Below are positions 1 through 15,687 of a stretch of DNA of 19,413 nucleotides, piece after piece. Source of the DNA: a virus (taxonomy: Duplodnaviria; Heunggongvirae; Uroviricota; Caudoviricetes); the IMG/VR virus record IMGVR_UViG_2703718769_000016, positions 1-19,413 of that record; one strand, 5' to 3'. The position numbers were made by a program, and so were the translations under genes. The notes under the pieces were generated by a model that was not told where the DNA came from, searched no databases, and was given only the letters and a program-made list of their open reading frames with translations. Position 1 is the first letter of the stretch. Every line of letters starts with the position of its first letter.

Positions 1-1287
1 TCATCGTCTCGCTCTGTGGGGCATGTATGGGACACTTTCAGTTAACTCCTTATTGAGCAGTTCTATCTGCCCGATATTGTTATCTTTCATCCATGCTCCG
101 TAAACATTGAAAACCATTTGGGCGTTTGCATGTCCCATCTGGTTTGCGATAAAGCTTGGATTAGCTCCCGCCGATAATGCCCAGCAGGCATAAGTATGCC
201 TGGACTGATAGGCTTTCCTGTGCCGTAGTCCCGCCCGTCTCAATGCCGATGCCCATGAGTCTCTGATGGAGTCTGCTTTGTAGTGGTGGCCTGCCTGCTG
301 GCATTTTTTCACCAGTTGCGGATTAAAAACAAATGTGCATTCATGTCTTACGGTGCGTCCGAACTCCCGAAGTTTGACGTCAATTTGATATTGAGTACCA
401 AATCTTGTCATTTCAGCCTGACTTTTCAGGGTATCAACGGCTGGTTGAACAAGATGAATAACACGATCTGTTCCCGCTTCGGTTTTTGGTAGAGTGAACT
501 CACCGAGTTTTGTATAATTACGACGGATAGTCATTGTTTTAGCTTTTAAATCAATATCCTCCCAGGCAAGAGATATCAGCTCACCATGACGAATGCCTGT
601 GTATACTGCTAAAGACCACAGGTTTTTTGTTTGTTGATGGTGGCAAGCATCAATAAAACGAATGAATTCGTCATGTGTGAGCGGATCTGGTTCTGTTCTT
701 GATCTTTTTAATGGTGTCAGACCGTTAAACGGGTTTGATTCTGTGTATCCGTTGTCAGCTGCAAATTGAAACATACCTGCAATTGTCGTCATGTAGTAAT
801 TAACTGTAACTACAGATCGCCCTTTGACAGGAGTTGTCTTGCCGTTCGAGAGATTGTGATACCCGGTCAATAAATCTTTCCTGATAAAGAGTAAATCTTC
901 TTTTGTTACAGATGAAGCCAGTCGATTTTCCCCTATACGAGGGAGCATGTTTCTCACCACAGATTGATACCGATTGAGCGCGTTACCACCTATCTCGATT
1001 TTCTTCAGATCCAGCCATTTTTCGGCAAGTGCCTTAATGGTTATCTCCCTTTTCCCCAGACCGAAGTGTTTCAGATTTGGAGACTCAGGGAACTGCGCAG
1101 CGTAGTCGAAATTCCCCATTCTGATTGCAAAACAAACTGAAGTCCTGAGTTCGCCTGCAATCTTCCGGTTTTTGGCTGTGTCAGGAATACCGAGGTTTTC
1201 TCTGACACGTTTGCCGTTATAGTGAAACCATATGCGGAGTGAGCCGCCATGGTTTTCAACGCCTGTTGGGTATGATGTGTTACTCAT
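1..1287 (-). CDS. int: Phage tyrosine integrase (lambda Int family site-specific recombinase)
   Basis: 428-aa ORF; C-terminal catalytic-type residues (R...HxxR...Y pattern, e.g. RHTYACW, GHANAQMVFNVYGAW); N-terminal arm-binding-like domain; SD GGGAGG upstream of ATG at 1287; sits at the prophage edge next to an excisionase-like gene. Confidence 0.9.
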   Translation of the reverse strand: MSNTSYPTGVENHGGSLRIWFHYNGKRVRENLGIPDTAKNRKIAGELRTSVCFAIRMGNFDYAAQFPESPNLKHFGLGKREITIKALAEKWLDLKKIEIGGNALNRYQSVVRNMLPRIGENRLASSVTKEDLLFIRKDLLTGYHNLSNGKTTPVKGRSVVTVNYYMTTIAGMFQFAADNGYTESNPFNGLTPLKRSRTEPDPLTHDEFIRFIDACHHQQTKNLWSLAVYTGIRHGELISLAWEDIDLKAKTMTIRRNYTKLGEFTLPKTEAGTDRVIHLVQPAVDTLKSQAEMTRFGTQYQIDVKLREFGRTVRHECTFVFNPQLVKKCQQAGHHYKADSIRDSWASALRRAGLRHRKAYQSRHTYACWALSAGANPSFIANQMGHANAQMVFNVYGAWMKDNNIGQIELLNKELTESVPYMPHRARR

Positions 1288-1320
1288 TAAACCTCCCAGA
1301 CGTCCAGGAGCATTAACAGG

Positions 1321-1575
1321 TTAACCGGAACTTGCATTTTTGGCACCTGGTTGTTTCTGGTTTTTTATCCACCGCATAATTGCATCTATGTTGTACAGGC
1401 ATTCACTGTTTGGTTTTGGCTCTCCATCCACAGAGAAGTGGATATATTCCCTTCCTAACATCCATGATGTTCTACGTGCTCGCTCGATAGTGCCTGATTT
1501 TAATCCTGTTGCAGCAATTAAGATGCTTTCAGCGCACCATTCACTGGGTGTTATCTGATAGATAATTTGTTGCAT
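1321..1575 (-). CDS. Putative excisionase / DNA-binding protein (Xis-like)
   Basis: 84-aa ORF immediately upstream of int on the same strand; small basic protein with wHTH-like segment (ITPSEW...SGTIERARR); ORF track starts at a TTG (1590), ATG at 1575 more likely. Functional call is mostly positional. Confidence 0.55.
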   Translation of the reverse strand: MQQIIYQITPSEWCAESILIAATGLKSGTIERARRTSWMLGREYIHFSVDGEPKPNSECLYNIDAIMRWIKNQKQPGAKNASSG

Positions 1576-1632
1576 AGAATTGCCTTGCAACCGCCGCCAC
1601 TATAGCTGGTGGACGGCGATCAGGGTTGAACA

Positions 1633-4116
1633 TTAAAAATCAGCTTGACTCGGGATCAGTTTTTGCCAGATTGCTGACACGTATTTTGCCTGGTAACGCG
1701 CATCGTGCAGGGCGTTATGGCGTTCACCTTCGAATGGAATAGTCGTTCTGGCATCGAAATCTATCACCAGTCCCAGAGCAACCATCGTTCGTACATCACG
1801 ATCGTTGTTGTAGCGCCACGGACAGGGGATCCCCTGTCGTTCATATGAACGGCGTAAAATTGCGTTGTCGAAGTTGGCTCCATTTCCCCACACCTGAACA
1901 AAAAATTCACCGGAGTTTTCGGCGATAAACTCCCTGAACTGCAACAGCGCGTCATCCAACGGGATTTCATTGGTAAGAATGGCGGATTGTGCTTCGCGTG
2001 ACTGTTTCAGCCACCACTTAATGGTGTCCCGATCGATGACTCCGCCTGCGGTTTCCAGATCGATAGTTTTGCTGAATTCTGGTCCCATCTCTCCGGTTAC
2101 CGGATCAAAAAACTTACCGGCTATAGCGTTGACTGGCGCATCAGGATTTTTTCCCATTGTTTCAAGGTCAATCATCAGATGGTGCCACAACCTGCTGGTG
2201 GATGTGACTTCATTATGACCGTTCACCTTAATTAAGGGATTTGCTGTCTCGCCAGTTTCATTATCGCTATCGTGATGCTGATCACCGTCAGCATTCTCCT
2301 TGCACGGATGTTCAGGGCTTTCCTGTTTCTCCGGATTTTTTTCCTGATATTCATCCAGGTTTTCTTCATTAAAGGTGTCCTGATACGTTGCGTCGCCCAT
2401 CACCGCGCCACAGTCAGGGCAGTTACCCCCACCAGTCTGGCCGCAGGAATCGCAGGCTTTTTCGGTTTCCGGTTGTGCTTCTGGCTCGTTTTGTAACGCA
2501 TTTGGGCTGTTTTGTTCCGCTTTCTGGCCGTTCTGTTCCGTTTCTTGCTGGTTCTGGTTCACAGAATCGCGGGTTTCAATCCCCTTAACCCATTTCGGAT
2601 CATTTTGGTCGCTAATCCATTCAACAAACTCTCCGCGAGAGGCAGCCAGTACTTTGTCTGCATCGACAGGATTTTTGGGCAGAATGTTTTTCCGTGCCTC
2701 GTGGAGTTCGGCCCGTAACTTCTCGTACTTCGTATCTATCTGTGACTGAGCATCCAGCGGCTGCGTGTCCTGATGATGTTCAGTTGTGTCCGGTTCCACT
2801 GTTTCAGCCGTTGCCTGCTCATCTGCCATTGCGTCAGATGGTTGAGGTTTTTCTTCATCATCCTTTTTTCCTTCTTCTGTTACACGCTGTGGCATCGGGG
2901 CAGAGGAGCGACCGCAGGCAATGGCCACAATCATCGGGTCGGGGGTAGCGTGGTCTGTTTCAGTCAGTACCCTGTTCAGATATTCAGTGACGTGCGCGGG
3001 GATGACCTCGATACCAATTGGTGCTTCTTTCACGGACGCAACCACGATGGCGCGGGAATAATCCAGCCCACCAGGCATGGCGATGAATTTGTCGCGGAAA
3101 ACAGAAAATGGCGGTTTATTTTCAGCGATAATTTCCTCAATGCGTTTCGCGTGTGCCGGATGAAGGTTATAAATGTCCACGTCCATTGAACGAGCCAGTA
3201 CACCTGTGGCCACATCGCGCTCCAGTGACGTCAGATCGTGGACGAAACCTTCGCCGCGATCGGTAAGAATTCCACCGCCAGCATTAGCACCTGATGGGGT
3301 GCGATTGATTTCAGATACATAATTTCCCTTCGCCCACTCTTTTGTCAGTAATCCCTGATCCAGATAATCAGTTTTCATCCAGATGGATATGAACTTGTCG
3401 AATTCTGCCGGGCTGATACGACGGGTTGCTGCGTGAGTGAATGCTCTGGATACCGACTCCGCCAGTCTGCTCAGATGGTGGTTTGTCAGCTTATCCAGTT
3501 CAGGATGAGAGCGTACAGCTGTGAGGAGGCTCTGGAGGTTACTGTCCTCCATATCCATTTCCATGCGGATCACTGTATTGCGTTGTTCCGGTGTTGCGTG
3601 GTGCCTGTATTTTCCGCCTTCTTCCTTGCCGAAAAAGTAGAGATGCAGGAAACGATGAGTCAGACTGAGAGTGGCGACGGGAATTTCACATTCATGGCAG
3701 TCATCGTTACTGTCCTGGGATTTATTTTTCTCTGCGTTCTCTGGCTGAGCACCGCTTTGTTCATCGTTGTCATTGCTGGCTGTTACAGCAGCTTCGCCGT
3801 TGATGTTGTCATTGAAGGGTATAGCCATCATGGTGATACCATCTTCCCCGCCTTTTTCATAGCGGTTGCAGAATTCAGTATCAAACACGCCTTCCGGTGG
3901 AAGGTCATTCACGACGGGGAAATTTACGCGAACGGGTTTTTTGAAATCATCCTCGTCGTAGCCTGCATCGTCCATGGCTGCAATGCAGCGGGAAACTGCG
4001 ACAGAAAGTTTTCTGGCATCAGCCCAGAAAAAACCGCCTTTGATGCCAAGGCGTTTTCTGACTTTATCGTTTTTTGCTTCGCAGTGTAGTGCAAAAGTCT
4101 GTTTATCAGCGCTCAT
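1633..4116 (-). CDS. Prophage exonuclease, 827 aa, with C-terminal DnaQ-like DEDDh 3'-5' exonuclease domain, internal zinc ribbon and acidic low-complexity linkers
   Basis: C-terminus has motifs DLETMG (Exo I), [11 protein letters not shown] (Exo II), [10 protein letters not shown] (Exo III, DEDDh); [16 protein letters not shown] zinc-ribbon-like motif; long D/E/Q/N-rich segments; occupies the recombination-module position between xis and kil. Confidence 0.75.
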
Positions 4117-4223
4117 TGTATTTAAACCTCTGGCTGGATTAGAATTAGCGGCCCTTTGTCTGATTTCTCCGAATACGGTGACGCAGGGAGAAATCCGGTA
4201 GCCTGCGCTGCCGGATTTTTATT

Positions 4224-4610
4224 TCAGTGGAAGGTTGCCTGGTTTGCTGTTTTGTGAGTTGTTTTTCCCTTTTCGTGCTGGCATTCAGGGCAGTCGCACT
4301 CAGAATTTTCTCTTGCAAACTCAAGAGCCTGCGCCAGTGTATGGATTTGTTGTGCTCCAATGTTGCTTCTGACGACTTCACATGCAGCATGAATATATGG
4401 GCTTGGTGCTTTGCCATTTAACCCACATGAAACCAAACGACTGTCTTTATATTCGTTATTTCCAACTTCTGTAAGCACTGAAAAAGAAAATACAAAGTCG
4501 ATTTTGTATTCTTTGCATATTTTACTGATGCGTTCTGCAATTTCTTTGAGTTCATTTATTGCATCAGGACTGGTTTCGGAAAATATTTCATTTTGCTCAA
4601 GTTCTTTCAT
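4224..4610 (-). CDS. Hypothetical protein (AT-rich accessory gene in the early-left operon)
   Basis: 128-aa ORF, markedly AT-rich (K/E/I/N-rich), C-terminal CDCPEC motif; same strand and spacing as the neighbouring early genes. Confidence 0.5.
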   Translation of the reverse strand: MKELEQNEIFSETSPDAINELKEIAERISKICKEYKIDFVFSFSVLTEVGNNEYKDSRLVSCGLNGKAPSPYIHAACEVVRSNIGAQQIHTLAQALEFARENSECDCPECQHEKGKTTHKTANQATFH

Positions 4611-4684
4611 TTTTCAATTTCCGTTATTGATAACTAATGTAAATTACTGTTTGGTGCATATATTCGAGAGTATTTTATTACTCA

Positions 4685-4906
4685 TTACCATGATTCAGCT
4701 TTTACCGGCAAACCATCACGTCCCAGGAAAACTTTAATCATGCAGTCGGTAATGCATGTTTTTGTCGTGAAGTTACGAATATAGAGTTTTCTCTTTTCAA
4801 TATTGTTTGCTGAAGCGATATATGTCCGACCTTCATGAAGAACATAATCGCCAGGCGTCACGCACTGACGTGGTATTTCATCAGTTCCGAAGTGATGAGC
4901 AATCAT
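4685..4906 (-). CDS. kilR: KilR-like host-killing / cell-division inhibitor protein (73 aa)
   Basis: 73-aa product [35 protein letters not shown]... recognised from memory as Rac prophage KilR-like; SD GGAGAT 6 nt upstream of ATG at 4906; ORF track's longer start (4924) overlaps the SD. Confidence 0.55.
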
Positions 4907-5486
4907 AATTATCTCCATTTTCACAAATGAACTTTGTTGATGCAGTGCCTGGTGCCTCTAGGTGACGTTAACCAGTTAACAATTAACGCCGGAATACATA
5001 AGAGGATACTTACGCCAGTAAAAGACCGCTTTACTGATTTAACTGTTCCGCGTGCGCTTAGCCGCATTCACCGCATCACAAAATTCACTTTAAAAAGGGC
5101 GGCAGAGCAGTCACGGAGTAAAACTGATACCGCCAAACGTCACCAGAAAATTGATAACAGAGGGCGTTGCAGCGGGGTTGTCACTTAAGCGTATGGTCAA
5201 CCTTACAACCCGGTGTCCTCAACGGGGAAGAAATAACCCCGCCATACTTACCGCCGCGCCATTTCGCGGATTGCCACAACCGGAAGCACACGGTCGAAGA
5301 AATCTAACGACAAGCCTTCTAAGGAAAAGACGCCTTCGCCGTGTGCTTTCGTGTTGTGCCCTGACTTTTCAGGGAAATATCCTTTCAGTAAACTGTCAGT
5401 GCCGGATGCTCACCCGTGTCCGGTGCACGTTCTCCCCCTCACCAGTGGATAACTCCAAAACTACTGACAACCCCAGGAGGGTGAAT

Positions 5487-5741
5487 ATGGCAAATATTTA
5501 TAGTCCTGACGAATATTTCAAAATAACTAATCAAAACATCAAAAATATTGTTGCCACTCAACAACTCTTTGGTAAATTACTTGGAGTAATTGCTGCCCGC
5601 ACAGGTTTGACTAATGAACTAAAGGAGATAATTGAATCCAGTGCTGCGACAGAAGAATCGATGTCTGAGCATGTTGAGTATTCAAAGCAGTTTATTCTCA
5701 ACTCAATGTCTTTGGTTCGCATAATTAAAGACCATTCTTAA
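5487..5741 (+). CDS. Hypothetical 84-aa protein, opposite strand to the early-left operon (sieB-position moron)
   Basis: Strong SD (CCAGGAGGG) 5-7 nt upstream of ATG at 5487; AT-rich coding sequence; predicted helical soluble protein; the long upstream extension to 5151 looks non-coding (R/K-rich, no SD). Confidence 0.5.
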   Translation: MANIYSPDEYFKITNQNIKNIVATQQLFGKLLGVIAARTGLTNELKEIIESSAATEESMSEHVEYSKQFILNSMSLVRIIKDHS

Positions 5742-5940
5742 CGCTTAAGAACACTTCGTTTATGAAGCATCCACTCGCATCTGGTGATGTTGTATTTATC
5801 GTAGTTAAATCGCTTTTCTTAATAGCGCGTTTAGCAATCCAGATGCGGGCCTCAGTACCTGCATTTGGTTCCACCTGCTGGAGGCGCTTTGCATCTTCCA
5901 GAAGCAGGGCGATAACGTGTTTTAATTCTGCCTCGTTCAT
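5725..5940 (-). CDS. Hypothetical small protein (71 aa), early-left operon
   Basis: ATG at 5940 lies 1 nt after the stop of the upstream 51-aa ORF (GGTGAATAAAATG), i.e. translationally coupled; ORF track begins it at an upstream GTG (5949). Confidence 0.4.
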   Translation of the reverse strand: MNEAELKHVIALLLEDAKRLQQVEPNAGTEARIWIAKRAIKKSDLTTINTTSPDASGCFINEVFLSVKNGL

Positions 5941-5941
5941 T

Positions 5942-6097
5942 TTATTCACCTGAGTTTCTTTCCAGCCAGCGACGCGCGCCAGCTTCGGTTTTAAACGTTT
6001 TGCTTCTGGTATACGTCATCGCGGTGAACGTACCGTCCTGGTTTGGGAACACGCCGAAAACCAGAGATTCATTGTTGCCAAGATTGAGCATATCCAT
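5942..6097 (-). CDS. Small 51-aa protein, YdaF-like (first gene of the leftward operon)
   Basis: Not in the ORF track (under 60 aa). MDMLNLGNNESLVFGVFPNQDGTFTAMTYTRSKTFKTEAGARRWLERNSGE; SD GAGG 6 nt upstream of ATG at 6097; length and position match Rac ydaF from memory. Confidence 0.4.
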   Translation of the reverse strand: MDMLNLGNNESLVFGVFPNQDGTFTAMTYTRSKTFKTEAGARRWLERNSGE

Positions 6098-6264
6098 GTT
6101 GACCTCATTTACCCTTAACGCCGGGTAGCGGAACTAAAAACCTGCTGCGCTGTTATACAAAGTGTTCCCGCCGTCATGTTCATACGCCTCGGGCTGGCTA
6201 CTTAACCCCTGACCACTGCCGGGTAACTCGAAGTATTGCCCTGCATTCTGTGAAGCGGGGTGGG

Positions 6265-6320
6265 TTGTAATGAATATAAGAATATTTAGTTTTGCCGTCA
6301 AGTTGAATATAAATATTTTT
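6265..6320. promoter_or_regulatory. OL-like operator/promoter region (repeated TGAATATAA sites)
   Basis: TGAATATAAG at 6271-6280 and TTGAATATAAAT at 6303-6314; the same 12-mer recurs at 7031-7042 on the other side of the repressor gene. Confidence 0.35.
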
Positions 6321-6346
6321 AAGATAAAAGGCCGGCAAAGCCGACC
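6318..6346 (-). terminator. Rho-independent terminator downstream of the repressor gene
   Basis: Minus-strand hairpin GGTCGGC-TTT-GCCGGCC (one G-U pair) followed by TTTTATCTT. Confidence 0.5.
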
Positions 6347-6370
6347 TCTGATTACAGGGAAAAGCGGGAG

Positions 6371-7015
6371 CTAGAGGCTGAACTGAACACCTTTTGCTAC
6401 AGCAACGATGTTACATTCCGGTGTAAGTAAGGATGATTGATAGCGTGGGTTAAGGGGGGCTAAGTACACGAGCTTTCCATCAATAACTAATTTTTTTATA
6501 GTCATGGATGGTTCGTTTGTGAGTGGATCTGGGACTATTACTGCGACGATGCTACCATTTTTATATTTTTCGCCAGGCCTCATGATCACTGTGGCTCCAA
6601 CTGGAATGCTTGGGGATCCTGATGGATTGTGCATAGTATCATCAGGCATTGAAACGGCAAAATCTCCCTCCTTGACATCAAAGAATGTGGTGATCCTGTC
6701 GACATTTCCCATAGTTTTCTCTCCTTTTAATATTAGGAAAGAAATCGCTTCTCCCCAAGAAAGGTATGGGATTTGGGTACCTGGATTTTTCTGCACAAGG
6801 GATGATTCAGGTGATGATACTCCATACAGGAGATAGGACTCAGTAGTGCCTAGTGCTAGGGCTAATTTACTAAGAGCTTTGCTACCTGGTTCGTTTAGAT
6901 CTTTCTCCCAGTATCCTATTGTTACCCCAGTTACGCCAGAAAGCTTGCCAAGTTCAACTTGGGTCAGACCTTTGTCTTTTCTGAGTTTCTTAAGCCTAAT
7001 GCCAAGGCTTTCCAT
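6371..7015 (-). CDS. CI-like prophage repressor (N-terminal HTH_XRE, C-terminal S24 LexA-like peptidase domain)
   Basis: N-terminal LTQVELGKLSGVTGVTIGYWEKD helix-turn-helix; C-terminal domain with S24-type fold features; SD GGGAGA upstream of ATG at 7015; divergent from a Cro-like gene. Confidence 0.85.
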   Translation of the reverse strand: MESLGIRLKKLRKDKGLTQVELGKLSGVTGVTIGYWEKDLNEPGSKALSKLALALGTTESYLLYGVSSPESSLVQKNPGTQIPYLSWGEAISFLILKGEKTMGNVDRITTFFDVKEGDFAVSMPDDTMHNPSGSPSIPVGATVIMRPGEKYKNGSIVAVIVPDPLTNEPSMTIKKLVIDGKLVYLAPLNPRYQSSLLTPECNIVAVAKGVQFSL

Positions 7016-7024
7016 TATTTTCTC

Positions 7025-7114
7025 CCGCGAATTGAATATAAATTATTTTAGATTGTATTGACCTAAAAAAAATTACCCTTTAATCTAAAAATACTTAGTT
7101 TTTAAGGGGGCGAA
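7025..7114. promoter_or_regulatory. OR-like operator region with divergent promoters (pR-like for the cro-like gene, pRM-like for the repressor)
   Basis: TTGAATATAAAT at 7031-7042 (identical to the 6303-6314 site); TTGACC at 7057-7062 then 17 nt then TAATCT; SD AAGGGGG before ATG 7115. Confidence 0.4.
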
Positions 7115-7342
7115 ATGCGAGTTGATGAACTTGTCCAGTTTTTTGGTTCTGTCCAAAGAGTCGCTGATTTTTATGGGGTAACCCGAGAAGCTATATACAT
7201 GTGGCGTAAGCGTCCCGGCGAAATAGTTCCCAAGGGGAGGGCTGCTGAAGCAGTTGCATACTCCAAGGGAAAATTATCGTTGAACCCAGAACTTTACAAA
7301 AAGAAGGATAACACCTCGAACGAAAGGAAAAATGATTCATGA
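7115..7342 (+). CDS. Cro-like HTH regulator (YdaS family)
   Basis: 75-aa protein with HTH (FGSVQRVADFYGVTREAIYMWRKR); divergently transcribed from the CI-like repressor; stop overlaps the next gene's ATG (ATGA). Confidence 0.7.
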   Translation: MRVDELVQFFGSVQRVADFYGVTREAIYMWRKRPGEIVPKGRAAEAVAYSKGKLSLNPELYKKKDNTSNERKNDS

Positions 7343-7776
7343 AAATCAAACATGAGCACATCCGCATGGCGATGAATGCGTGGCTGCTTTATCCGAGGGT
7401 AGGGCGCAAAAAAATCGCTGATGATATAGCGACAGCATATTTTGAGCTTGAAATGACTTATCCACCAATGCATGACACCTCTACGACAGAGGGTATTGGA
7501 TTGAACATACAAAATATTTTTCGCTGGCTTGAAAAGGATACGCCTGATGCTGTTGAAAAAATTCAGGCACTAATTCCGGCTATCCTGACTGTTCTTCCGC
7601 GTGAACTGCGTTATCACCTCAGTATTTTTGACACTGTTGAGCGCCGTGCATTACTGGCGGCGCAGGAAGCGTTAAGTACGGCAATTGATGCACATGATGA
7701 TGCAGTCCAGGCCGTTTACCGGAAAGCGTATTTCAGCGACGGCGGGTCATCCGGCGAGTCTGTTGTGGTGCATTGA
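7339..7776 (+). CDS. YdaT-like (CII-analogue) early regulatory protein
   Basis: 145-aa ORF translationally coupled to the cro-like gene; family assignment by position and recalled similarity only. Confidence 0.5.
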   Translation: MKIKHEHIRMAMNAWLLYPRVGRKKIADDIATAYFELEMTYPPMHDTSTTEGIGLNIQNIFRWLEKDTPDAVEKIQALIPAILTVLPRELRYHLSIFDTVERRALLAAQEALSTAIDAHDDAVQAVYRKAYFSDGGSSGESVVVH

Positions 7777-7862
7777 TATTTATGCCAGACCCCTGCTGAT
7801 TCTGTTGATTGGGGAATCACAGATTATCACCAGAGGATGGTTCGTCACAAGGTGAGGCAATT

Positions 7863-8873
7863 ATGGCCGCATTACCATACATGCAACTTTACATAGCTGA
7901 TTACCTGGCGGACACCATGCATTTGTCCGCAGAGGAGCACGGTGCGTATTTGTTGCTGATGTTCAATTACTGGCAAACAGGGAAGCCAATACCCAAAAAC
8001 AGACTGGCAAAAATCGCCCGTCTGACTAACGAGCGATGGGCTGATGTTGAACCATCCTTGCGGGAGTTTTTTTGCGATAACGGCGACGAATGGGTGCATC
8101 TTCGGGTTGAGGAAGATCTGGTATCAGTCAGGGAAAAATTAACCAAAAAATCAGCCGCCGGAAAAGCATCTGTTCAAGCCAGAAGAAGCAGAAAGGAAGC
8201 ATATGTTCAAACAAAACAAGAGAGAGATTTAACAGGTGTTCAAACAAATGTTGGTGTTGTGTTTGAACATGACGCAAACACAAAAGCAACTAATAAAGAT
8301 ACAGATCTAAAAGAATTAAACCCCACACATAACGCGCGCATGCGCGAGAGTGCTCCAACCGGTGAGTCGAATGGTGCGTCGTTGCAGACAGCCGAACCTG
8401 AATACCTGGACGGCCTGAGCGAACCGATCGGGAAATTTTCGATGACCACTGTCTGGCAGCCGTCGCCGGATTTTCGACAACGGGCAGCAGTGTGGGGTAT
8501 GGCTCTGCCTGAGCCGGAATTTACACCTGCTGAGCTTGCTGCATTCCGGGATTACTGGATGGCGGAGGGGAAGGTTTTCACGCAGGTTCAGTGGGAGCAG
8601 AAATTTGCCCGCCACGTGCAGCACGTCAGGGCACAGGTAAAACCAGTCAGCAAGGGGGTAAGCCATGCAGCATCAGGTGGCACGGCATCACGGGCAGTTC
8701 AGAAAATCCGGGCAGCACGAGAACAGTGGGAACGTGAAAACGGATTTATCAGCAACGGAAACGGCCTGGAAGCTGTGGGAACTTATGGGGGAGGTTTATT
8801 CAAACCGCTGGACTCAGAAGAACGGGGCCGCACCTTCGAAGCTCTGGATTGCCCAGATTGGCGCGATGACTGA
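7863..8873 (+). CDS. Replication initiation protein, DUF1376 (YdaU-like) N-domain with DnaT-like C-terminal region
   Basis: SD AAGGTGAGG then ATG at 7863; N-terminus MAALPYMQLYIADYLADTMHLSAEEHGAYLLLMFNYW typical of DUF1376; central low-complexity linker whose DNA carries iteron-like repeats. Confidence 0.7.
   Translation: MAALPYMQLYIADYLADTMHLSAEEHGAYLLLMFNYWQTGKPIPKNRLAKIARLTNERWADVEPSLREFFCDNGDEWVHLRVEEDLVSVREKLTKKSAAGKASVQARRSRKEAYVQTKQERDLTGVQTNVGVVFEHDANTKATNKDTDLKELNPTHNARMRESAPTGESNGASLQTAEPEYLDGLSEPIGKFSMTTVWQPSPDFRQRAAVWGMALPEPEFTPAELAAFRDYWMAEGKVFTQVQWEQKFARHVQHVRAQVKPVSKGVSHAASGGTASRAVQKIRAAREQWERENGFISNGNGLEAVGTYGGGLFKPLDSEERGRTFEALDCPDWRDD
8170..8275. repeat. Iteron-like repeats (TGTTCAAAC core), candidate replication origin inside the initiator gene
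   Basis: tgttcaagc at 8172, tgttcaaacaaa at 8204 and 8238 (direct, 32-34 bp spacing), inverted copy tgtttgaaca at 8262; flanked by an A-rich stretch. Confidence 0.35.
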
Positions 8874-9327
8874 ACAGCAAATCCGGCTGGTCTGCCGTCA
8901 GTGCATGGACCGCTGCCGGGCGGGTGAAACGTGGCCCCCGGACCTGGCTGAGTTTGTTGCGCTGATTTCGGAGAGTGGGGCAAATCCATTTGGTCTTACG
9001 GTGGATGCCGTGATGGAGGAGTACCGTCGCTGGCGCAATGAATCCTGGCGGTACGACGGGAGTGATAAATACCCGTGGCCACAGCCTGTGCTGTACCACA
9101 TTTGCCTCGAGATGCGTTCAAAGGGGATTGAGCGCCAGATGACCGAAGGGGAGTTAAAACGGCTTGTGGAAAGGCAGCTGACGAAATGGGCAAAGCATGT
9201 TGGTAATGGCCTCAGTGTTCCGCCAGTCCGGCGACAACTGGCAGCACCCAAACGCCCGCCAGGGCCAACGCCAATTGAATTGCTGAAACAGGAATATGAG
9301 CGCCGGAAGGCGGCCGGTTTTGTCTGA
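8665..9327 (+). CDS. Lambda P-like replication protein (helicase loader family); start uncertain
   Basis: C-terminal two-thirds aligns by eye to lambda P ([14 protein letters not shown] / PFLPSPGQFVAWC; YPWPQP / YPWKSN). Strong SD AAGGGGG before ATG 8665 but that start overlaps the upstream gene by 208 nt; alternatives are ATG 8785 and ATG 8866 (ATGACTGA overlap with the upstream stop). Confidence 0.6.
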
Positions 9328-9361
9328 GTTGAGAAGTAATTTTTACCGGGAGGAAAATTTA

Positions 9362-10075
9362 ATGGAAACCGTATTTGACGCACTGAAAGCACTGAAAAAA
9401 GCCTCGTCGCACGAGATTGCAGCCCGTCTTGAAATCAGCCGTGACGATGCTGTCAACGAGCTGTGGAAGCTGAAACGCCGTGGTGAAGCTGATAACAAGG
9501 GGTCGATGTGGTGGCTGACGAGTGAGGCAACTGAAATGGCCACAAAAACCACTGCGGAGATGCTGATTAACGCAATTGAACAGCATGGTCCTCAGTCGGC
9601 TGACGAACTGGCGTTAATGTTCGGGATTACCTCCCGCCGGGCGAATTCAACGCTGGCAATGGCAATAAGCAAAGGTCGTCTGATTCGAGTAAATCAGAAC
9701 GGTAAATTTCGTTACTGCCTGCCGGGCGATAATTTACCAGCAGAGCCGAAAGCTGCATCGGTAACGGAAACTGCTGGTAAAGCCTTTCCTCAGCCAGCAG
9801 GTGTTGCGTTACCAGTCCGGGAAGCGGAAACACAGGAAGAAATTAAAACTGAAAGTGTGGCGGTCACAGTGCAGTCACAGCCGTCGTTCACCAGAAAGCA
9901 TCCGGATAGTCTGATTTTACCATCGCTGCATGTGGCTAACCGCGAACTGCGCCGGGCAAAAGGTCAGGTTCAGAAGTGGGAGCGAGTCTGTGCTGCGCTG
10001 CGTGAGCTGAACAAGCACCAGGATATTGTTCGACAGATTACTGATTCATCCTGTTGTGTTGCATCAGACAAGTGA
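9362..10075 (+). CDS. Hypothetical protein with two winged-helix-like segments
   Basis: SD GGGAGGAAAA before ATG 9362; 237 aa; wHTH-like stretches ([23 protein letters not shown] and [29 protein letters not shown]). Confidence 0.6.
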
Positions 10076-10090
10076 TTGCAGGGGACGCTG

Positions 10091-10594
10091 ATGGCAAGAG
10101 TATTTACACCAGAAGAGCGGGAAAAAATTAAGGGGCAGGTTGTTGAACTCGTACGCCAGAGCGGTCGCGAGACGTTACGGCAACTGGAAGCTAAAACAGG
10201 TGCAACAAGATATCTGGTGATCGTTCTCGCCAGAGAGCTGGTTGCCAGTGGTGATGTATACAACTCTGGCTACGGGTTATTTCCGTCTGAACAGGCTCGT
10301 AAAGACTGGCAAAACGCCCGCAAAAAACTTTCAAGGGAAAAGGCGAAGAAACCGGCTGTGGTTGATCCGGACCTTATCTGGTCATTACCAGACGGAGAAA
10401 TACGCCGCTACGACAGGCGCCTGAACATAATCTGTCGCGAGTGCCGGAATAGTGAAGTTATGCAGCTAGTGCTGGCGTTTTATCAGGGGGTGGGGTCAGG
10501 AGGTGGTGCTGTGAGTGAAATTAGCTATCAGGCTTCAATTTCCGCTGGCATTCGCATCAAAGGAGAGGAGCATGGAAATAAAACCAGAAGATGA
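10091..10594 (+). CDS. Hypothetical prophage protein
   Basis: 167-aa ORF; ATG 10091 follows GGGGA; ORF track start at 10076 is a TTG; same strand and tight spacing with neighbours. Confidence 0.5.
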   Translation: MARVFTPEEREKIKGQVVELVRQSGRETLRQLEAKTGATRYLVIVLARELVASGDVYNSGYGLFPSEQARKDWQNARKKLSREKAKKPAVVDPDLIWSLPDGEIRRYDRRLNIICRECRNSEVMQLVLAFYQGVGSGGGAVSEISYQASISAGIRIKGEEHGNKTRR

Positions 10595-10928
10595 GTTAAG
10601 TAATATTGTTTTATTTCCGGTAAAAGAGGATGACCCACGTAATCAGGTTAATTTTCTTTATGAGCCATCGGAAAGACCATATTGTCATCACGCCTCTGTC
10701 CGGGTTGACGAAAAAGAGCGTCAGGTCCGCTGTAAAATCTGCGGTGCAGTTGTGGAGCCATTTGACTGGATGCCCTCTGTGGCGAAAAGAGAAACCAGAC
10801 TGGCAGATGATGTAAGGCTCTTGCGCCAGGAGGAACGGGAAAGGCGGAGAAATGTAGAAAAGCTAATTCAGATTGAGCGTAACGCGAAAGCGCGGATACG
10901 CAGGGCGGCAAAATCAAGAACTGAATAA
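10572..10928 (+). CDS. Hypothetical protein with zinc-finger-like motif (C/H-x...CxxC)
   Basis: SD AAAGGAGAGGAG before ATG 10572; PYCHHASVRVDEKERQVRCKICGAV motif; basic coiled-coil-like C-terminus. Confidence 0.5.
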   Translation: MEIKPEDELSNIVLFPVKEDDPRNQVNFLYEPSERPYCHHASVRVDEKERQVRCKICGAVVEPFDWMPSVAKRETRLADDVRLLRQEERERRRNVEKLIQIERNAKARIRRAAKSRTE

Positions 10929-11021
10929 TTAAATTTAGCACTGTTAAAAATTTAATCCTTAACCGGAGGGATTTCTGCACCCTCAGAACATCAGGAGGCC
11001 GTTCGAAATGGCGGTAGTGAA

Positions 11022-11204
11022 ATGCGAAAATTCAAAATAATTATTGAAACGGGAATAGCTGGTGGAGATTTTGAGGATGTATTCGAAGTAGATGATGACG
11101 CAACACCTGATGAAATTCATGACGAAGCAAAAGAAATTTTCTTTAACTACTGCAATTACTCATACCACGAAATAAAAGATGAAGAGGAAGGACAAAATGG
11201 CTGA
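11022..11204 (+). CDS. Small acidic hypothetical protein (60 aa)
   Basis: ORF with acidic composition; stop overlaps the next ATG (ATGGCTGA). Confidence 0.4.
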   Translation: MRKFKIIIETGIAGGDFEDVFEVDDDATPDEIHDEAKEIFFNYCNYSYHEIKDEEEGQNG

Positions 11205-11373
11205 TTTTGGTTCAACTAAATATAACGCCAGTTTTGAAGAATGGCATGAACTGTTAATGGATTATGCAGAGTTACGCGGTGGAAGTGCCGCTGATGCTGA
11301 AGCATGGCGTGATGATTATGAAGCAGGGAAAACTCCGGTCGAAGCATATTGTGATGAGTGGGGCGATGAATGA
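11197..11373 (+). CDS. Small acidic hypothetical protein (58 aa)
   Basis: SD GAGGAAGGA before ATG 11197; coupled to neighbours at both ends. Confidence 0.45.
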   Translation: MADFGSTKYNASFEEWHELLMDYAELRGGSAADAEAWRDDYEAGKTPVEAYCDEWGDE

Positions 11374-11729
11374 GCGAGATTAATTATCAGGAAGGGCATG
11401 AAAAGGCAGGGCAGGCAAAACCAGTGGCATGGCGATATCGCTACGTGAAAAAAGGCGTTACAGACTTTCAGGGGAAGCAGTGGGCTGGTGACTGGAAATA
11501 TGTCCAGACAAAAGAAGATTGTAACGACAGACCGAACTATGAAATTCAGGCGTTATTCACGGCACCGCCAGCCCCGGTGACATCAGAAGGACTAGTTAAA
11601 GCCGTGTGCTTTTATGAACAGGTAAAGCGTGAGAATCCACCAGTCGAAACAGGTGCATGGAAAGATGCTGTTGACTGGGTACTCAAAGAGGCTTGCCAGG
11701 CTGTAAGCATTAGCAACAAAGGGGGGTGA
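11370..11729 (+). CDS. Hypothetical prophage protein (119 aa)
   Basis: ATG overlaps the upstream stop (ATGA); plausible globular composition. Confidence 0.55.
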   Translation: MSEINYQEGHEKAGQAKPVAWRYRYVKKGVTDFQGKQWAGDWKYVQTKEDCNDRPNYEIQALFTAPPAPVTSEGLVKAVCFYEQVKRENPPVETGAWKDAVDWVLKEACQAVSISNKGG

Positions 11730-11732
11730 GTA

Positions 11733-11909
11733 ATGCGTGTGGCATGTATCAGTTTGTTACCGTACCCGACTCGTTTTTTGGCTTCTGCGCTAATTGCAAA
11801 GCCGCGTGTCCTGATGGATGACAGCATCATCCCGACACCAAAGCGCCGCCATACCGGTATTGCAGCGGCACGACGAGCAGCAAAGAAACGCAGGAGAGCA
11901 AAACGATGA
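11733..11909 (+). CDS. Small basic protein (58 aa), not in the ORF track
   Basis: Strong SD AGGGGGGTGAG before ATG 11733; C-terminal KRRHTGIAAARRAAKKRRRAKR; stop overlaps the next ATG. Confidence 0.3.
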   Translation: MRVACISLLPYPTRFLASALIAKPRVLMDDSIIPTPKRRHTGIAAARRAAKKRRRAKR

Positions 11910-12100
11910 AAAACCGTAAAGCAAAAATTCTGTTAGCTCGCAGAAACGGTGTTGGTGTCTGGCGGTGGGTGAGGATTAGTAACAGACGGGTGAGGTTGAC
12001 GGGGTGTTGCGGTGTTATGGGGCACAGTTGTTGCAAAAAGCCCAGCGCGGCGCAAAACCGCTGGAAAAACCACTGTTATCTGCGCACTAAAGGAGAGTGA
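11906..12100 (+). CDS. Questionable small ORF (64 aa) over a G/T-rich repeat region
   Basis: SD AGGAGAG before ATG 11906 and exact stop-start abutment with neighbours, but W/R/C-rich translation and GGGTGAGG repeats suggest it may be non-coding. Confidence 0.2.
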   Translation: MKNRKAKILLARRNGVGVWRWVRISNRRVRLTGCCGVMGHSCCKKPSAAQNRWKNHCYLRTKGE

Positions 12101-12101
12101 G

Positions 12102-12617
12102 ATGGCGTTAACACACCGCGAACTCTGTCAGATTGCGTACAAGTTCCTTAAGCGCAACGGGTTCAAGGTTTGCTTTCATGACCGCTTTATAGCTGTAACC
12201 AGTACCGGAGAACAGCCAGATGCTATGGGATTCAGAAATTCAGCATCATGCCTGATAGAGGCGAAGTGTTCTCGTGCTGACTTGTTGGCAGATAGAAAAA
12301 AGCGTTTCCGTAAAAATCCCTCTCTTGGCATGGGCGACTGGAGATTCTTTATTAGTGAGCCGGGAATTATTTCAATTGAGGATTTACCACCTGGCTGGGG
12401 ATTACTTCACGTTGTTAACGGAAGAGTACGGAAAGTACATGGGTGGCCCAAGGGTAATTGCTGTTGGGGTAATCCTGACGATAAGCCATTTACTGGAAAT
12501 AAGCAGGTTGAATGCGATTACATGTTGTCTGCATTAAGGCGCATGGAGTTGAGAGGGCACCTTAATGAAATATATGACGGTGTAATTGTTAATAAGAAAG
12601 AAGGAAACGCGGCATGA
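12102..12617 (+). CDS. Putative PD-(D/E)XK-fold nuclease-like protein (MmcB-like)
   Basis: SD AAAGGAGAG before ATG 12102; motif pattern D...(IEAK) consistent with a PD-(D/E)XK core (PDAMGF...[12 protein letters not shown]); 171 aa. Confidence 0.45.
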
Positions 12618-12958
12618 CGACTTTTACCAGAGAGCAGTTAATAGCTCACGCAGAGGAGACTATTGAAGCACAGAGACTGTGCATACCGGGCACAATCGAC
12701 AATGACATCATCCGCACATATAAGATGGATATTGCTGTTCTGGAAATCGCACTGGCATCGCTGGCAGCAGAGCCAGCCGGTAAATTGCATGAATACAAAC
12801 CAGTGGGACATCAGCGTCTGGTCGACGAGTTAACCATGCTGGTAAAGCAGTTAACCTGGCAACTGAGGAAAACGAAGCCGGACTGTAAATTGCCGGGTAA
12901 GGCGATGGACTACCTGAAGCGAAACGGACTGATAAGTGCAGAGGATGTTTTACGATGA
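12614..12958 (+). CDS. Hypothetical prophage protein (114 aa)
   Basis: ATG overlaps the upstream stop (ATGA); helical composition. Confidence 0.55.
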
Positions 12959-13038
12959 CCTGGCATGGGGCATTCACAACGGTAGGGATTGCAATGGCGG
13001 TGGTGCTGATTGTGTATTCGATTTGTCGCTGGGGGTAA
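12955..13038 (+). CDS. Putative 27-aa hydrophobic peptide ([27 protein letters not shown])
   Basis: ATG overlaps the stop of the preceding gene (ATGA); single predicted transmembrane helix; too short for the ORF track. Confidence 0.3.
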
Positions 13039-13149
13039 AAACGATTTGCGGGGAAAGGATAGTTAAGTAGAATTGCTGCGGGTGCTTGAGGCTATCTGTC
13101 TCAGGCATGAACACCAAAAGGCAGATAGAGAAAAGCCCCAGTTAACATT

Positions 13150-13215
13150 ACGCGTCCGGCAAGACGCTTAACATTAATCTGAGGCCATATCTATGCTCTA
13201 CACACGTAGGTTAGC
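13150..13215 (-). ncRNA. Predicted Sok-like antisense RNA of the hok locus (approximate position)
   Basis: Inferred from hok-family organisation; candidate minus-strand promoter (TTGCCT then 17 nt then TAACCT) would place a transcript antisense to the upstream in-frame ATG and SD at 13181-13195. Confidence 0.25.
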
Positions 13216-13249
13216 CTCTTACGTGCCGAAAGGCAAGGAGAAGCAGGCT

Positions 13250-13405
13250 ATGAAGCAGCAAAAGGCGATGCTAATCGCCCTGATCGTCATCTGTTTAACC
13301 GTCATTGTGACGGCACTGGTAACGAGGAAAGACCTCTGCGAGGTACGAATCCGAACCGGCCAGACGGAGGTCGCTGTCTTCACAGTCTACGAACCTGAGG
13401 AGTAA
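13250..13405 (+). CDS. hok: Hok/Gef-family type I toxin (51 aa membrane peptide)
   Basis: MKQQKAMLIALIVICLTVIVTALVTRKDLCEVRIRTGQTEVAVFTVYEPEE: hydrophobic TM helix plus conserved RKxLCE...EVA motif of the Hok family; SD AAGGAG; an in-frame upstream ATG at 13193 with its own SD (mok-like leader); structured 3' region with fold-back hairpin and terminator. Confidence 0.8.
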   Translation: MKQQKAMLIALIVICLTVIVTALVTRKDLCEVRIRTGQTEVAVFTVYEPEE

Positions 13406-13475
13406 GAGACCAGGCGGGGGAGAAATCTCCCGCCACCTCTGATGTGTCAGGCATCCTCAACGCACCCGCACTTAA

Positions 13476-13495
13476 CCCGCTTCGGCGGGTTTTTG
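13476..13495 (+). terminator. Rho-independent terminator of the hok transcript
   Basis: CCCGC-TTCG-GCGGG followed by TTTTT; preceded by hairpin GGCGGGGGAGA-AAT-CTCCCGCC at about 13414-13434. Confidence 0.6.
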
Positions 13496-13506
13496 CATTA
13501 GTCTGG

Positions 13507-13545
13507 TTGACAAAAACAGGAAAATGCGAAAATATAAGGTTTACG
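13507..13545 (+). promoter_or_regulatory. Candidate sigma70 promoter for the two-gene insert
   Basis: Perfect -35 TTGACA at 13507-13512; A/T-rich -10 candidates (AAATAT / TATAAG) 17-20 nt downstream; lies between the hok terminator and the 13571 ATG. Confidence 0.35.
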
Positions 13546-13570
13546 AATTCTAAAAAAAGCGAAACTTGAA

Positions 13571-14221
13571 ATGAATGAAAATCAGTTAGCTCCTTGTTGG
13601 GAATTTCAACCTTATCTTGCTGAAAGCAATGTTCGCCAGTTGTTGGCGGAGATCGCTAACGTACTTGAGCAGTTGTACTATCATAAGCACGTATTAGACA
13701 GCAACTGGTCTGAAGGTGTAAGGGCTTATGATTGGGTCAGAAACCATCTTATTCAAAATGAAGGCGCAATTCCTGGTCTTAAGATGATTTCCAAGGGGTT
13801 GGACTATGTAGTTGCTTTAAATAAAGTTCCGCTACAATTTACCAAAGATTGCATTAATAACCCCAAAAAGAAACATCGCCTGCGTCGAAATAAAGTAGAG
13901 CATGAGCAGCTTTCATTGTTTGGTGATGTTGAGGCTGAGCAAGATATTACATGGCGAGTCATAGCGGAGCCATTTTTATCCGAAGAGGGAGATGGTGAAT
14001 TAGAGTCCACACTGCCTCGTTGGGAGGTGGCTCTTGTTGGGTTTAATATCTATGGTGCTCAGATTAGTATGGTTTCTCATCAATCTACAGCATCAATGCC
14101 ACTTATGCCCCTTGACGGTAACACACTCCCTGGCGAAGCGGAGATTAATAAGGTGTCTCTTCGTCGGCGTACGAAGGATAAAATTTTGGATGTGAGCAGT
14201 AATGGAACATCAGGTGAATAA
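13571..14221 (+). CDS. Hypothetical 216-aa protein, candidate toxin/effector partner of the HTH-M78 peptidase
   Basis: Long ORF in a low-GC insert; no motif recognised by eye; 3' end overlaps the start of the downstream HTH/peptidase gene by 20 nt (operon). Confidence 0.6.
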   Translation: MNENQLAPCWEFQPYLAESNVRQLLAEIANVLEQLYYHKHVLDSNWSEGVRAYDWVRNHLIQNEGAIPGLKMISKGLDYVVALNKVPLQFTKDCINNPKKKHRLRRNKVEHEQLSLFGDVEAEQDITWRVIAEPFLSEEGDGELESTLPRWEVALVGFNIYGAQISMVSHQSTASMPLMPLDGNTLPGEAEINKVSLRRRTKDKILDVSSNGTSGE

Positions 14222-15305
14222 CTTCACTGAGTATCGAGGCGATAAGCTCAAACTAGCAAGAATGGCTATTGGGCTTTCATGTGAAGAGTTGGCCGAAAAA
14301 ATTGGCAAAACAAAACAATTCGTTAGCAAATTGGAGAAGGGATTTAGGCCATCAGAGCAATGCCTGGAGTTAATAGCCTCAGCTCTTATGATTAAGCCCG
14401 ATTTTCTATTTACTGAGCGAAAATATGCTCTGGAAAGCGATGTTTGCCATTTTCGGAGTAAGAAGTCCAGGACTCAAACGCTGACTAATAGTGTCTTGGC
14501 TAGGGCTGAGATTCTTAATATTATAATTTCTGCTGTTGAAGGTGAAATCGAATTCCCTGATGTCAACATACCAGAGCACCCAGGAACTGAATTACTTACC
14601 CCGAATGATATTGAGCGAGTGGCAGAAGATTGTCGCCGTGCATGGAATCTAGGTCTTGGCCCTATATCATCAATGGTGAAATTGGCGGAGAGTTTGGGGG
14701 TAATCGTTGCGCATGTTACGGGAGTCGATGATCGTGTTGATGCATTCACTGTTCACAATAACAGGCCTGTTATTATCAGGAACAATGTAAAAAAAAGCAT
14801 ATGTAGATTTCGCTCTGATTTAGGTCATGAGTTAGGGCATTTAGTAATGCATGAGGGCATAACTACTGGTGATAAACTTACGGAATCACAAGCTGATCAC
14901 TTTTCTAGCGCCTTATTGGTTCCTAGGCTATCTTTCATTAAAGAATTTCCACGAATACGAGGTAAGCAATTCGATTGGAGTGCTCTGGTTGAATTTAAGC
15001 TTAGATGGAAAATTAGCCTTAAAATGTGTATTTATCGAGCCAGTGCATTAGGACTATTGACCCAGGAACAGGCAAGAACTGGCTATATGCATCTTAATTC
15101 TAGAGGGTACACGAGAGTTGAACCAGGTGATGAACTTTTGCGCCACGAAGAACCAAGTATGCTGTCCGAAGCGATTGACATGCTGGATGATGCAACTTGG
15201 TTAAGAATTCTTATGAAAACTGGCTTGAGTCAAGATTTAATTCGTGAGTTGTTCTCCATCAATCGACCTATTACAAATCCAAGAAATATTTTTCAGATTG
15301 TTTGA
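14202..15305 (+). CDS. Xre-family HTH fused to ImmA/IrrE-type (M78, COG2856) zinc metallopeptidase
   Basis: N-terminal HTH (LKLARMAIGLSCEELAEKIGKTKQFVSKLEKG); HEXXH zinc-binding motif HELGHLVMHE about 140 residues later; 367 aa, typical for HTH-COG2856 fusions. Confidence 0.85.
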   Translation: MEHQVNNFTEYRGDKLKLARMAIGLSCEELAEKIGKTKQFVSKLEKGFRPSEQCLELIASALMIKPDFLFTERKYALESDVCHFRSKKSRTQTLTNSVLARAEILNIIISAVEGEIEFPDVNIPEHPGTELLTPNDIERVAEDCRRAWNLGLGPISSMVKLAESLGVIVAHVTGVDDRVDAFTVHNNRPVIIRNNVKKSICRFRSDLGHELGHLVMHEGITTGDKLTESQADHFSSALLVPRLSFIKEFPRIRGKQFDWSALVEFKLRWKISLKMCIYRASALGLLTQEQARTGYMHLNSRGYTRVEPGDELLRHEEPSMLSEAIDMLDDATWLRILMKTGLSQDLIRELFSINRPITNPRNIFQIV

Positions 15306-15310
15306 GCATA

Positions 15311-15335
15311 CCCGCTACGGCGGGTTTTGTTTTTT
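15311..15335 (+). terminator. Rho-independent terminator after the HTH-M78 gene
   Basis: CCCGC-TAC-GGCGGG followed by TTTTGTTTTTT, 6 nt after the stop; near-identical core to the hok terminator. Confidence 0.65.
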
Positions 15336-15686: not shown

Positions 15687-15687
15687 C

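Follow-up and report, generated by a model that had tools for sequence, protein, structure and literature searches.

Two prophages of Escherichia coli K-12, Qin and Rac, carry the closest described relatives of the locus considered here. The Qin product DicF was among the first bacterial small RNAs (sRNAs) to be described; it depends on Hfq and represses ftsZ and other mRNAs. It lies in an operon with the order ydfABC, long untranslated region (UTR) with dicF, dicB and ydfD. In the K-12 literature this region is transcribed leftward and processed: a 190-nt species owes its 5' end to RNase III, the 53-nt DicF owes its own to RNase E, and the 3' end is formed either by a Rho-independent terminator or through cleavage by RNase III, which leaves a form of 72 nt. 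The subject of the present analysis is a gene-free interval (positions 4907-5486) and the adjoining plus-strand gene for an 84-aa protein in a stretch of 19,413 nt, the IMG/VR virus record IMGVR_UViG_2703718769_000016 from position 1 to 19,413, hereafter called the window. The prophage is very probably a Rac/Qin hybrid, and the interval the long, conserved and untranslated spacer of its early-left operon, which is of the dicBF type, with a plus-strand element and its accessory gene at the right end.

The window is a 100% match to E. coli strain FHI_NMBU_11 (NZ_CP045712.1), in which the region is a lambdoid prophage adjoining yecE. Its early-left operon occupies the minus strand in the order LexA-like repressor, DUF1391 gene, truncated small gene, gene-free stretch, kilR, a gene of 128 aa and an exonuclease VIII-like gene, and the 84-aa open reading frame (ORF) sits on the plus strand between the truncated small gene and the gene-free stretch. 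The comparison with Qin is revealing of the nature of the spacer. The whole block is about 90% identical to the ydfC-dicB spacer of Qin and occupies the same place after ydfA-type genes; the sequences of the terminator and of a long duplex are conserved as well, and the stretch corresponding to the 190-nt precursor contains no indels. The two loci differ in that the window has the Rac-type kilR downstream where Qin has dicB, the plus-strand 84-aa gene and a truncated small gene in place of ydfB and ydfC, and immunity of the LexA-like repressor type where Qin has DicA/DicC. The gene order (repressor, DUF1391 gene, small genes, spacer, kilR) is nonetheless that of a dicBF-type spacer, with Kil rather than DicB as the division inhibitor. 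Phage Tritos is annotated at the same position with three small genes equivalent to ydfA, ydfB and ydfC, followed by DicF, dicB and ydfD.

Rac resembles the window in its arrangement: leftward kilR, an sRNA slot, an opposite-strand gene, a leftward DUF1391 gene (ydaF in Rac) and the repressor. Segment 4900-5105, including the terminator and with it the kilR 5' UTR segment 4907-5096, is common to both. In contrast to the window, Rac has KilS (98 nt, verified by northern blot) in the sRNA slot instead of DicF, does not possess the part of the block at 5149-5486, and carries as its plus-strand gene sieB, which is unrelated to the 84-aa gene. An initial annotation of the window, made from the sequence alone, had placed the 84-aa gene where Rac carries sieB, and the order of K-12 Rac (leftward kilR and KilS, rightward sieB, leftward ydaF) bears this out.

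Because kilR starts at the ATG at 4906 (PGAP), the gene-free interval spans 4907-5486 (580 nt); the initial annotation was correct that it is free of genes, but had begun it at 4925. The interval is non-coding. Among 147 unique homologous copies of the block, drawn from IMG/VR and annotated collections, 64 distinct indel events were counted in 5149-5470, of which 52 have lengths not divisible by three, and the stop-free stretch in frame with the ATG of the plus-strand gene varies from 0 to 131 codons. A hidden coding frame was thereby ruled out, and the earlier reading of the stretch as non-coding stands, no conserved frame having been found. More specifically, the indel spectrum and the variable open stretch indicate that a 196-aa ORF at 5151-5741 and a 139-aa protein (P0002) are chance N-terminal extensions. 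Some genome annotations call this 139-aa form of the 84-aa protein; since the extension crosses the non-coding block and is not conserved, the call is an annotation artefact.

The block is widespread, and its conservation does not follow that of the plus-strand gene. When the block together with the 84-aa gene was used as query, 4720 of 5426 complete E. coli genomes contained matching DNA, with a median of two such places in each, and nearly all matches covered the block part only; matching DNA is also found in E. albertii, E. ruysiae and Citrobacter. The gene accompanies the block in 4 of the 5426 genomes, and the block is equally conserved in the approximately 60% of copies that have no plus-strand gene.

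The initial annotation had described the stretch as rich in hairpins. Taken as a single sequence, it is not so beyond chance: eight perfect 5-bp hairpins were counted against 4.5 +/- 2.3 in dinucleotide shuffles, of which 22 of 200 reach eight, and the local minimum free energy (MFE) gives z-scores of -0.35 (plus strand) and -1.55 (minus strand). Structure becomes visible only when sub-regions and strands are treated separately, and through compensatory changes in relatives. The two hairpins that had been singled out both exist, displaced by 1-2 nt from the positions first given for them, with CCCTGA/TCAGGG at 5359-5374 and CCGCG/CGCGG at 5254-5269.

DicF itself was recovered on the minus strand by a covariance-model scan, rightly proposed as a check in the initial annotation: Rfam RF00039 matches at 76.7 bits against a gathering threshold of 48 (E 1e-15, model positions 1-52 of 52). 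The window DicF is 100% identical to K-12 dicF (b1574), seed regions, terminator hairpin and U-run being no exception, and by this identity the minus-strand sRNA of the block is the already known DicF. As DicF is a textbook sRNA, the finding reveals no new RNA. The suggestion that the stretch might contain an sRNA thus holds, but for the strand opposite the 84-aa gene. For 137 nt upstream of DicF there are no indels relative to K-12, so that the 190-nt species corresponds to the window from 5097 to about 5287; by alignment the RNase III 5' end falls at about 5287 and the RNase E site at the 5' end of DicF. The sequence identity to K-12, together with a conserved minus-strand duplex, is the basis on which both the processing by RNases III and E and the Hfq-dependent repression of ftsZ would carry over to the window.

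The slot occupied by DicF is allelic. Among 212 loci most have canonical DicF, and at least six other alleles are found at the same terminator position. The non-DicF alleles, examined at twelve loci, consist of a hairpin and terminator of 43-62 nt and share the GGCGG...CCGCC terminator as their end. In strain 2015C-3121 the 84-aa gene of the window is accompanied by a divergent allele in the DicF slot.

The upstream part of the precursor (5149-5287) holds the CCGCG/CGCGG hairpin, a variable hairpin (5223-5241) and a pairing of GTATGG with CCATAC (5191-5196 with 5242-5247). Its folding z-score is not significant on either strand. Compensatory changes, which the initial annotation had proposed to look for by comparative alignment, are present in relatives: in a module at 5158-5280 the pairs of three helices are 91-99% canonical, with such changes in relatives that include phage P1. 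Two further pairings were inspected by eye in the alignments. A long-range stem at the published RNase III 5' site (CCGUGYGC with GCGCACGCGG) is present in the MFE fold of the window, and most relatives seem to have a C.A mismatch in it; for the GGGGTTGTC/GACAACCC helix, wobble pairs gave mixed signals on both strands as to its strand. The module is more widespread than DicF, occurring in phage cdtI, in Stx2c phages and in P1, where the counterpart is annotated as a 'dicF-like region' and lies within the leader of the ban operon, which C1 controls, again on the same strand. Window positions 5173-5269 are 75% identical to this P1 region (NC_005856, 68739-68833), which lies upstream of phage tRNA genes, and in phage cdtI the module stands directly downstream of the repressor gene.

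This distribution is compatible with a general role of the module in early transcripts, which may be one in processing or in antitermination. A specific version of the latter is that the minus-strand module is a cis-acting processive-antitermination RNA, functionally like put of HK022, by which an operon without N would be transcribed past the DicF terminator as far as kilR and the exonuclease gene. An intrinsic terminator does stand in mid-operon, no N-like gene was seen between repressor and module, and no other conserved element precedes the module after the repressor gene of phage cdtI; in P1 it is part of the ban leader on the same strand. We nevertheless regard this explanation as improbable. 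The HK022 early region, including pL, shows similarity limited to 11-mers (E 0.75 or worse), the module belongs to no Rfam family, its folding signal is not significant, and the published 190-nt DicF precursor covers the stretch and is a sufficient explanation for it.

The strongest minus-strand structure lies between the DicF terminator and kilR. The minus strand of 4895-5100 folds with an MFE of -64.7 kcal/mol (z -3.76; none of 200 shuffles reached this stability), and 4925-5096 gave z-scores of -4.75 (minus strand) and -3.12 (plus strand). The MFE fold is a long-range stem of 30 pairs joining 5069-5099 with 4915-4947. Read on the minus strand, the 22 core pairs reach at least 98% canonical pairing across the 147 copies, and the G.U or U.G pairs 5088/4927, 5092/4922, 5073/4943 and 5072/4944 are canonical on the minus strand only, being A.C on the plus strand. 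The outermost pairs (4913-4916 with 5098-5099) involve the first two Gs of the kilR Shine-Dalgarno (SD) sequence (GGAG, 4916-4913) and the 3' side of the DicF terminator stem. Long RNA duplexes are classic substrates of RNase III. Since the duplex is such a typical substrate and is located where the 3' end of the 72-nt DicF is reported, it is likely to be the RNase III site that gives this end. The involvement of the kilR SD and of the terminator stem in the outermost pairs suggests that terminator folding, RNase III cleavage and Kil translation may be linked, such that the duplex would couple DicF 3' processing to kilR expression. The Rfam family STnc100 (RF02076) matches 4892-5095 on the minus strand at 24 bits, below the gathering threshold of 47 (E 0.0097); the family may be distantly related to the structure in the kil 5' UTR, which is not itself a member.

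The right end of the spacer has a different orientation. The last approximately 85 nt (5399-5486) behave as a plus-strand-specific structured RNA ending in a strong ribosome-binding site (RBS), and are the probable 5' leader of the gene that follows. On the plus strand this element folds with a z-score of -2.89, as against +0.78 on the minus strand; in a set of 44 unique relatives, drawn from four right-edge classes, mean z-scores range from -3.3 to -5.5 on the plus strand and from -0.2 to -1.5 on the minus strand. A first hairpin, H1 (5399-5426), forms an 11-bp helix in which three wobble pairs are canonical in 13 of 14, 13 of 14 and 9 of 14 variants on the plus strand, against 1, 0 and 2 of 14 on the minus strand. 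The second hairpin is kept in both leader variants, A and B, even though its sequence is unrelated between them. A candidate promoter for a rightward transcript may lie just upstream of 5399: TTTTCA (5366-5371) and TAAACT (5389-5394), separated by a 17-nt spacer, agree with the consensus at 8 of 12 positions, below the scan threshold, and the predicted start at about 5399-5401 falls at the foot of H1. The candidate gains weak support from two cases in which non-homologous AT-rich DNA has replaced the promoter segment and a -10-like hexamer is nevertheless kept, its distance from H1 unchanged (TAAAAT at loci L199 and L223; an extended TGtTATTAT at L334).

Several observations weigh against the reading of the right end as the leader of an accessory gene. 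The plus-strand structure is equally strong in copies with the K-12 type of right edge (ydfC-type), which have no plus-strand gene, and the element may thus serve another role, for example as an antisense RNA. No plus-strand promoter exceeded the threshold of the consensus scan, no plus-strand terminator was detected by scan 3' of the 84-aa ORF, and no transcript data for a rightward RNA were found; the published K-12 study reported no additional promoter in the operon, though it probed the minus strand. Finally, an anti-SD hairpin that sequesters the SD, with compensatory change between leader variants, was considered and rejected, because the probability that the SD is paired is 0.65, no better than the 0.79 obtained with shuffled upstream sequence. 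With this, the idea of a riboregulator acting by SD sequestration lost its footing.

Alternatively, the right-end element could be a short antisense RNA, or a promoter causing transcription interference, directed against the early-left transcript at the 3' end of ydfC and merely exploited by small ORFs. The folding signal is indeed strongest in ydfC-type copies without a plus-strand ORF (mean z -5.5), the element is conserved in K-12 Qin, and the sas antisense RNA of P22 sieB is a precedent at this type of locus. On the other hand, neither a terminator nor a defined 3' end was seen, the promoter is weak, and no such RNA is annotated in K-12. We consider this alternative unlikely, yet with an appreciable chance of being right.

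The leader reading draws on what stands to the right of the element. A 23-mer chosen so as to be neutral with regard to the right edge was used to collect copies, giving 118 classifiable loci: 49 are ydfC-type, as in K-12, 21 abut a leftward gene beginning MEFKDLP, one is of another kind, and in 47 (approximately 40%) a plus-strand ORF comes after the motif GGAGG(G/A)T(G/A)A...ATG. These ORFs, here termed cargo, comprise at least ten unrelated families of 57-94 aa, all beginning at the same SD-ATG junction. Pfam, PHROGs and PADLOC gave no known function for the cargo families save for one marginal GhoS-like match, and hhalign comparisons of three of them with the 84-aa family revealed no relationship. 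The plus-strand cargo usually precedes a convergent gene with a conserved N-terminal portion of about 55 residues and a variable C-terminus. This leftward family (beginning MEFKDLP..QEMA..VRSQLATLDLS, with highly variable C-termini; 106-216 aa), recorded just right of the cargo at five loci and others, often overlaps it by about 20 nt. Cargo and C-terminus do not strictly co-vary, the same C-terminus occurring with different cargos. At the convergent-gene position the window has only the remnant of a small gene. A literature search found no description of a plus-strand slot or hotspot adjoining dicF, and a spacer that supplies a structured plus-strand element and a common RBS to interchangeable small ORFs is, in our view, a modest new observation.

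The initial annotation had gone further and read the whole of the approximately 560 nt as a long structured plus-strand leader feeding the 84-aa gene, or as a riboregulator or sRNA controlling it. The common SD-ATG junction and the plus-strand-specific structure of 5399-5486 agree with this, as does the fact that the entire block always accompanies the cargo leader wherever no contig end interrupts it. DicF and the long duplex, however, belong to the minus strand, and the bulk of the interval is a dicBF-type UTR belonging to the other strand, which the literature describes as transcribed leftward and processed. Sub-regions within 5097-5398 give no plus-strand folding signal (z -0.3 to -0.8), SD sequestration failed its control, and the block is conserved just as well where no plus-strand gene exists. 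A leader of this length is thus highly improbable; only the last 85 nt or so, with their plus-strand structure and shared RBS, could plausibly serve as one. In sum, the original observation is confirmed and its interpretation is partly supported.

The 84-aa ORF is a real but rare gene, and the strong SD first ascribed to it is present at the positions given in Table 1. The possibility that it is a chance ORF in AT-rich filler DNA takes its appeal from the rarity of the ORF, its orphan status without family assignment, and the lack of a promoter or terminator. This explanation is already largely refuted and, in our estimation, very remote. An exhaustive HMMER and profile search found homologues of 81-84 aa, 30-58% identical, in Salmonella enterica subsp. 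salamae, in Edwardsiella anguillarum and in metagenomes; across Escherichia, Salmonella and Edwardsiella they keep the length and the same invariant residues. In each case they occupy the same slot, opposite a leftward early operon and behind a long gene-free stretch. In Salmonella that stretch includes the block too, its sRNA slot being filled by a terminator hairpin alone. The distant Edwardsiella homologue (locus L338) is preceded by a GC-rich stretch of 913 nt (3089-4000) without a called gene, in which neither similarity to the DicF block nor an Rfam match was found. The protein cluster of the gene is present on 418 contigs. Along with the strong RBS, the confident AlphaFold2 model obtained from only six sequences, which predicts a soluble three-helix protein, also argues for a genuine gene.

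No family match to the 84-aa protein was obtained in Pfam or PHROG, and a Foldseek search of the model against PDB and BFVD gave nothing below E 1. The earlier judgement that it is not a SieB analogue agrees with the soluble helical model; only genomic position links the two. Membership in the AroQ class of chorismate mutases was tried and rejected, there being no Pfam CM_2 match with catalytic residues, no Foldseek match and only 7-9% identity to 1ybz and 1ecm. The resemblance in the model probably reflects only a generic helical hairpin that may dimerise.

The gene forms part of a cassette extending from approximately 5470-5487 to about 5817: homology to other loci ends at about 5470-5486 and resumes at 5818-5839, and the whole cassette occurs in only four complete E. 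coli genomes. Judged by these homology limits, an AT-rich cassette of about 330 bp has replaced ydfC-type DNA and the 3' end of the small leftward gene. It resembles the lambdoid morons (sieB of lambda, P22 and Rac) in being an opposite-strand, AT-rich, mobile single-gene insert in an early operon at the sieB position, and the 84-aa gene counts as a new, rare representative of this general class of accessory genes. As in morons, base composition differs from that of the flanking DNA, the GC content of the ORF being 0.35-0.39 and that of the block 0.50-0.54, which also upholds the description of the ORF as AT-rich. Unlike in morons, no promoter and terminator of its own passed the scan; the only candidate promoter lies in the conserved spacer, outside the cassette, and RBS and leader come from that spacer and are common to at least ten other cargo families. 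Our guess is that the 84-aa protein is most likely an accessory (moron) factor in phage-host or phage-phage conflict.

The initial annotation had also raised the analogy of RNA-based defence, in which the region would be the RNA part of a retron, a type III toxin-antitoxin system or the like, with the 84-aa protein as partner. Nothing beyond that analogy speaks for it. The region has no tandem repeats, no reverse transcriptase or other defence gene was seen nearby in the ORF list and annotation, and the block has no Rfam match above threshold besides DicF. PADLOC gave no match for the 84-aa protein, eight other cargo proteins or one protein of the MEFKDLP family. We give this explanation hardly any credence.

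Table 1. Features of the dicF spacer and its surroundings in the window.
Feature	Position	Strand	Basis or detail
kilR (Kil, FtsZ inhibitor), gene downstream of the spacer	4685-4906	minus	PGAP; PHROG 294 'Kil protein', E 2.4e-38
kilR 5' UTR, from DicF terminator to kilR	4907-5096	minus	arms 5069-5099 and 4915-4947; 22-30 bp duplex enclosing three small hairpins
DicF sRNA with Rho-independent terminator hairpin	5097-5148	minus	Rfam RF00039
Upstream part of 190-nt DicF precursor	5149-5287	minus	alignment to K-12
Least conserved middle of spacer	5288-5398	not assigned	conservation profile, deletion variants; holds hairpin CCCTGA/TCAGGG and candidate promoter
Plus-strand RNA element, probable 5' leader of cargo gene	5399-5486	plus	H1, second hairpin, SD AGGAGGG 5475-5481
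84-aa accessory gene (WP_033801181.1)	5487-5741	plus	ATG 5487, stop 5739-5741; SD AGGAGGG 5475-5481, 5-nt spacer
3' flank of window-specific cassette	5742-5817	not assigned	homology limits
Remnant of small early-left gene (its family, MNKMNE.ELKHVIALLLED..., usually has about 51 aa)	5818-5940	minus	PGAP 'incomplete, missing C-terminus'
ydfA/ydaF-like DUF1391 gene, first of early-left operon	5942-6097	minus	Pfam PF07151, E 5e-28; PGAP
LexA-like repressor	6371-7015	minus (early-left operon)	

Of the neighbouring genes, the truncated small gene is covered by a mechanically called ORF at 5725-5949; PHROG 30817, 12693 and 2982 match it over residues 4-48 only, and intact relatives of 51 aa are found. 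The 128-aa gene of the early-left operon (4224-4610, minus strand) matches PHROG 2016, of function not known, over its full length (E 1e-75) and has a weak match, below the cut-off, to the Api92-like ferredoxin-like domain PF18406 (E 0.0025). Elsewhere in the prophage, a match to the sok antitoxin RNA (Rfam RF01794, 13080-13255, plus strand, 117 bits against a gathering threshold of 59) points to a type I toxin-antitoxin locus of the hok/sok type.

Taken with the K-12 precedent, these features suggest the following course of events. When the repressor-controlled leftward promoter fires, a minus-strand transcript would run from ydfA through the small genes and the spacer into kilR. RNase III would cut it near 5287 to yield the 190-nt precursor, and RNase E would trim this to the 53-nt DicF, ending at its own terminator. 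In transcripts that read through, the sequence 3' of the terminator would pair with the kilR 5' UTR in the duplex of 22-30 bp, which, as a substrate of RNase III, would yield the 72-nt form of DicF and would touch the kilR SD. DicF and Kil both block FtsZ-dependent division. The 84-aa gene would probably be transcribed rightward from the weak promoter just upstream of 5399. Such transcription converges with the early-left operon, so that the cargo would be made mainly in the lysogen and be shut down on induction by head-on transcription and duplex RNA.

A broader proposal, which we put forward tentatively and consider possible but rather doubtful, is that the dicF spacer is a two-faced exchange platform. 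Its minus strand would offer a slot for sRNA alleles (DicF, KilS and no fewer than six others that end in a hairpin) with one fixed terminator, and its right approximately 85 nt would provide a conserved rightward promoter and a structured leader for hypervariable small proteins expressed in the lysogen, or, in copies without cargo, an antisense RNA against the early-left transcript. Expression of the cargo and of the early-left operon would be mutually exclusive through convergent transcription and cleavage of duplex RNA by RNase III.

The allelic sRNA position, held by DicF, KilS or others, bears on the evolution of prophage sRNAs, and the plus-strand element predicts a rightward transcript even in K-12 Qin. 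The common RBS at the end of the spacer offers a sequence-defined way to harvest uncharacterised accessory genes of prophages, the 84-aa family included. If the proposal of an exchange platform is true, the cargo proteins would constitute an unexplored pool of prophage accessory or anti-phage factors.

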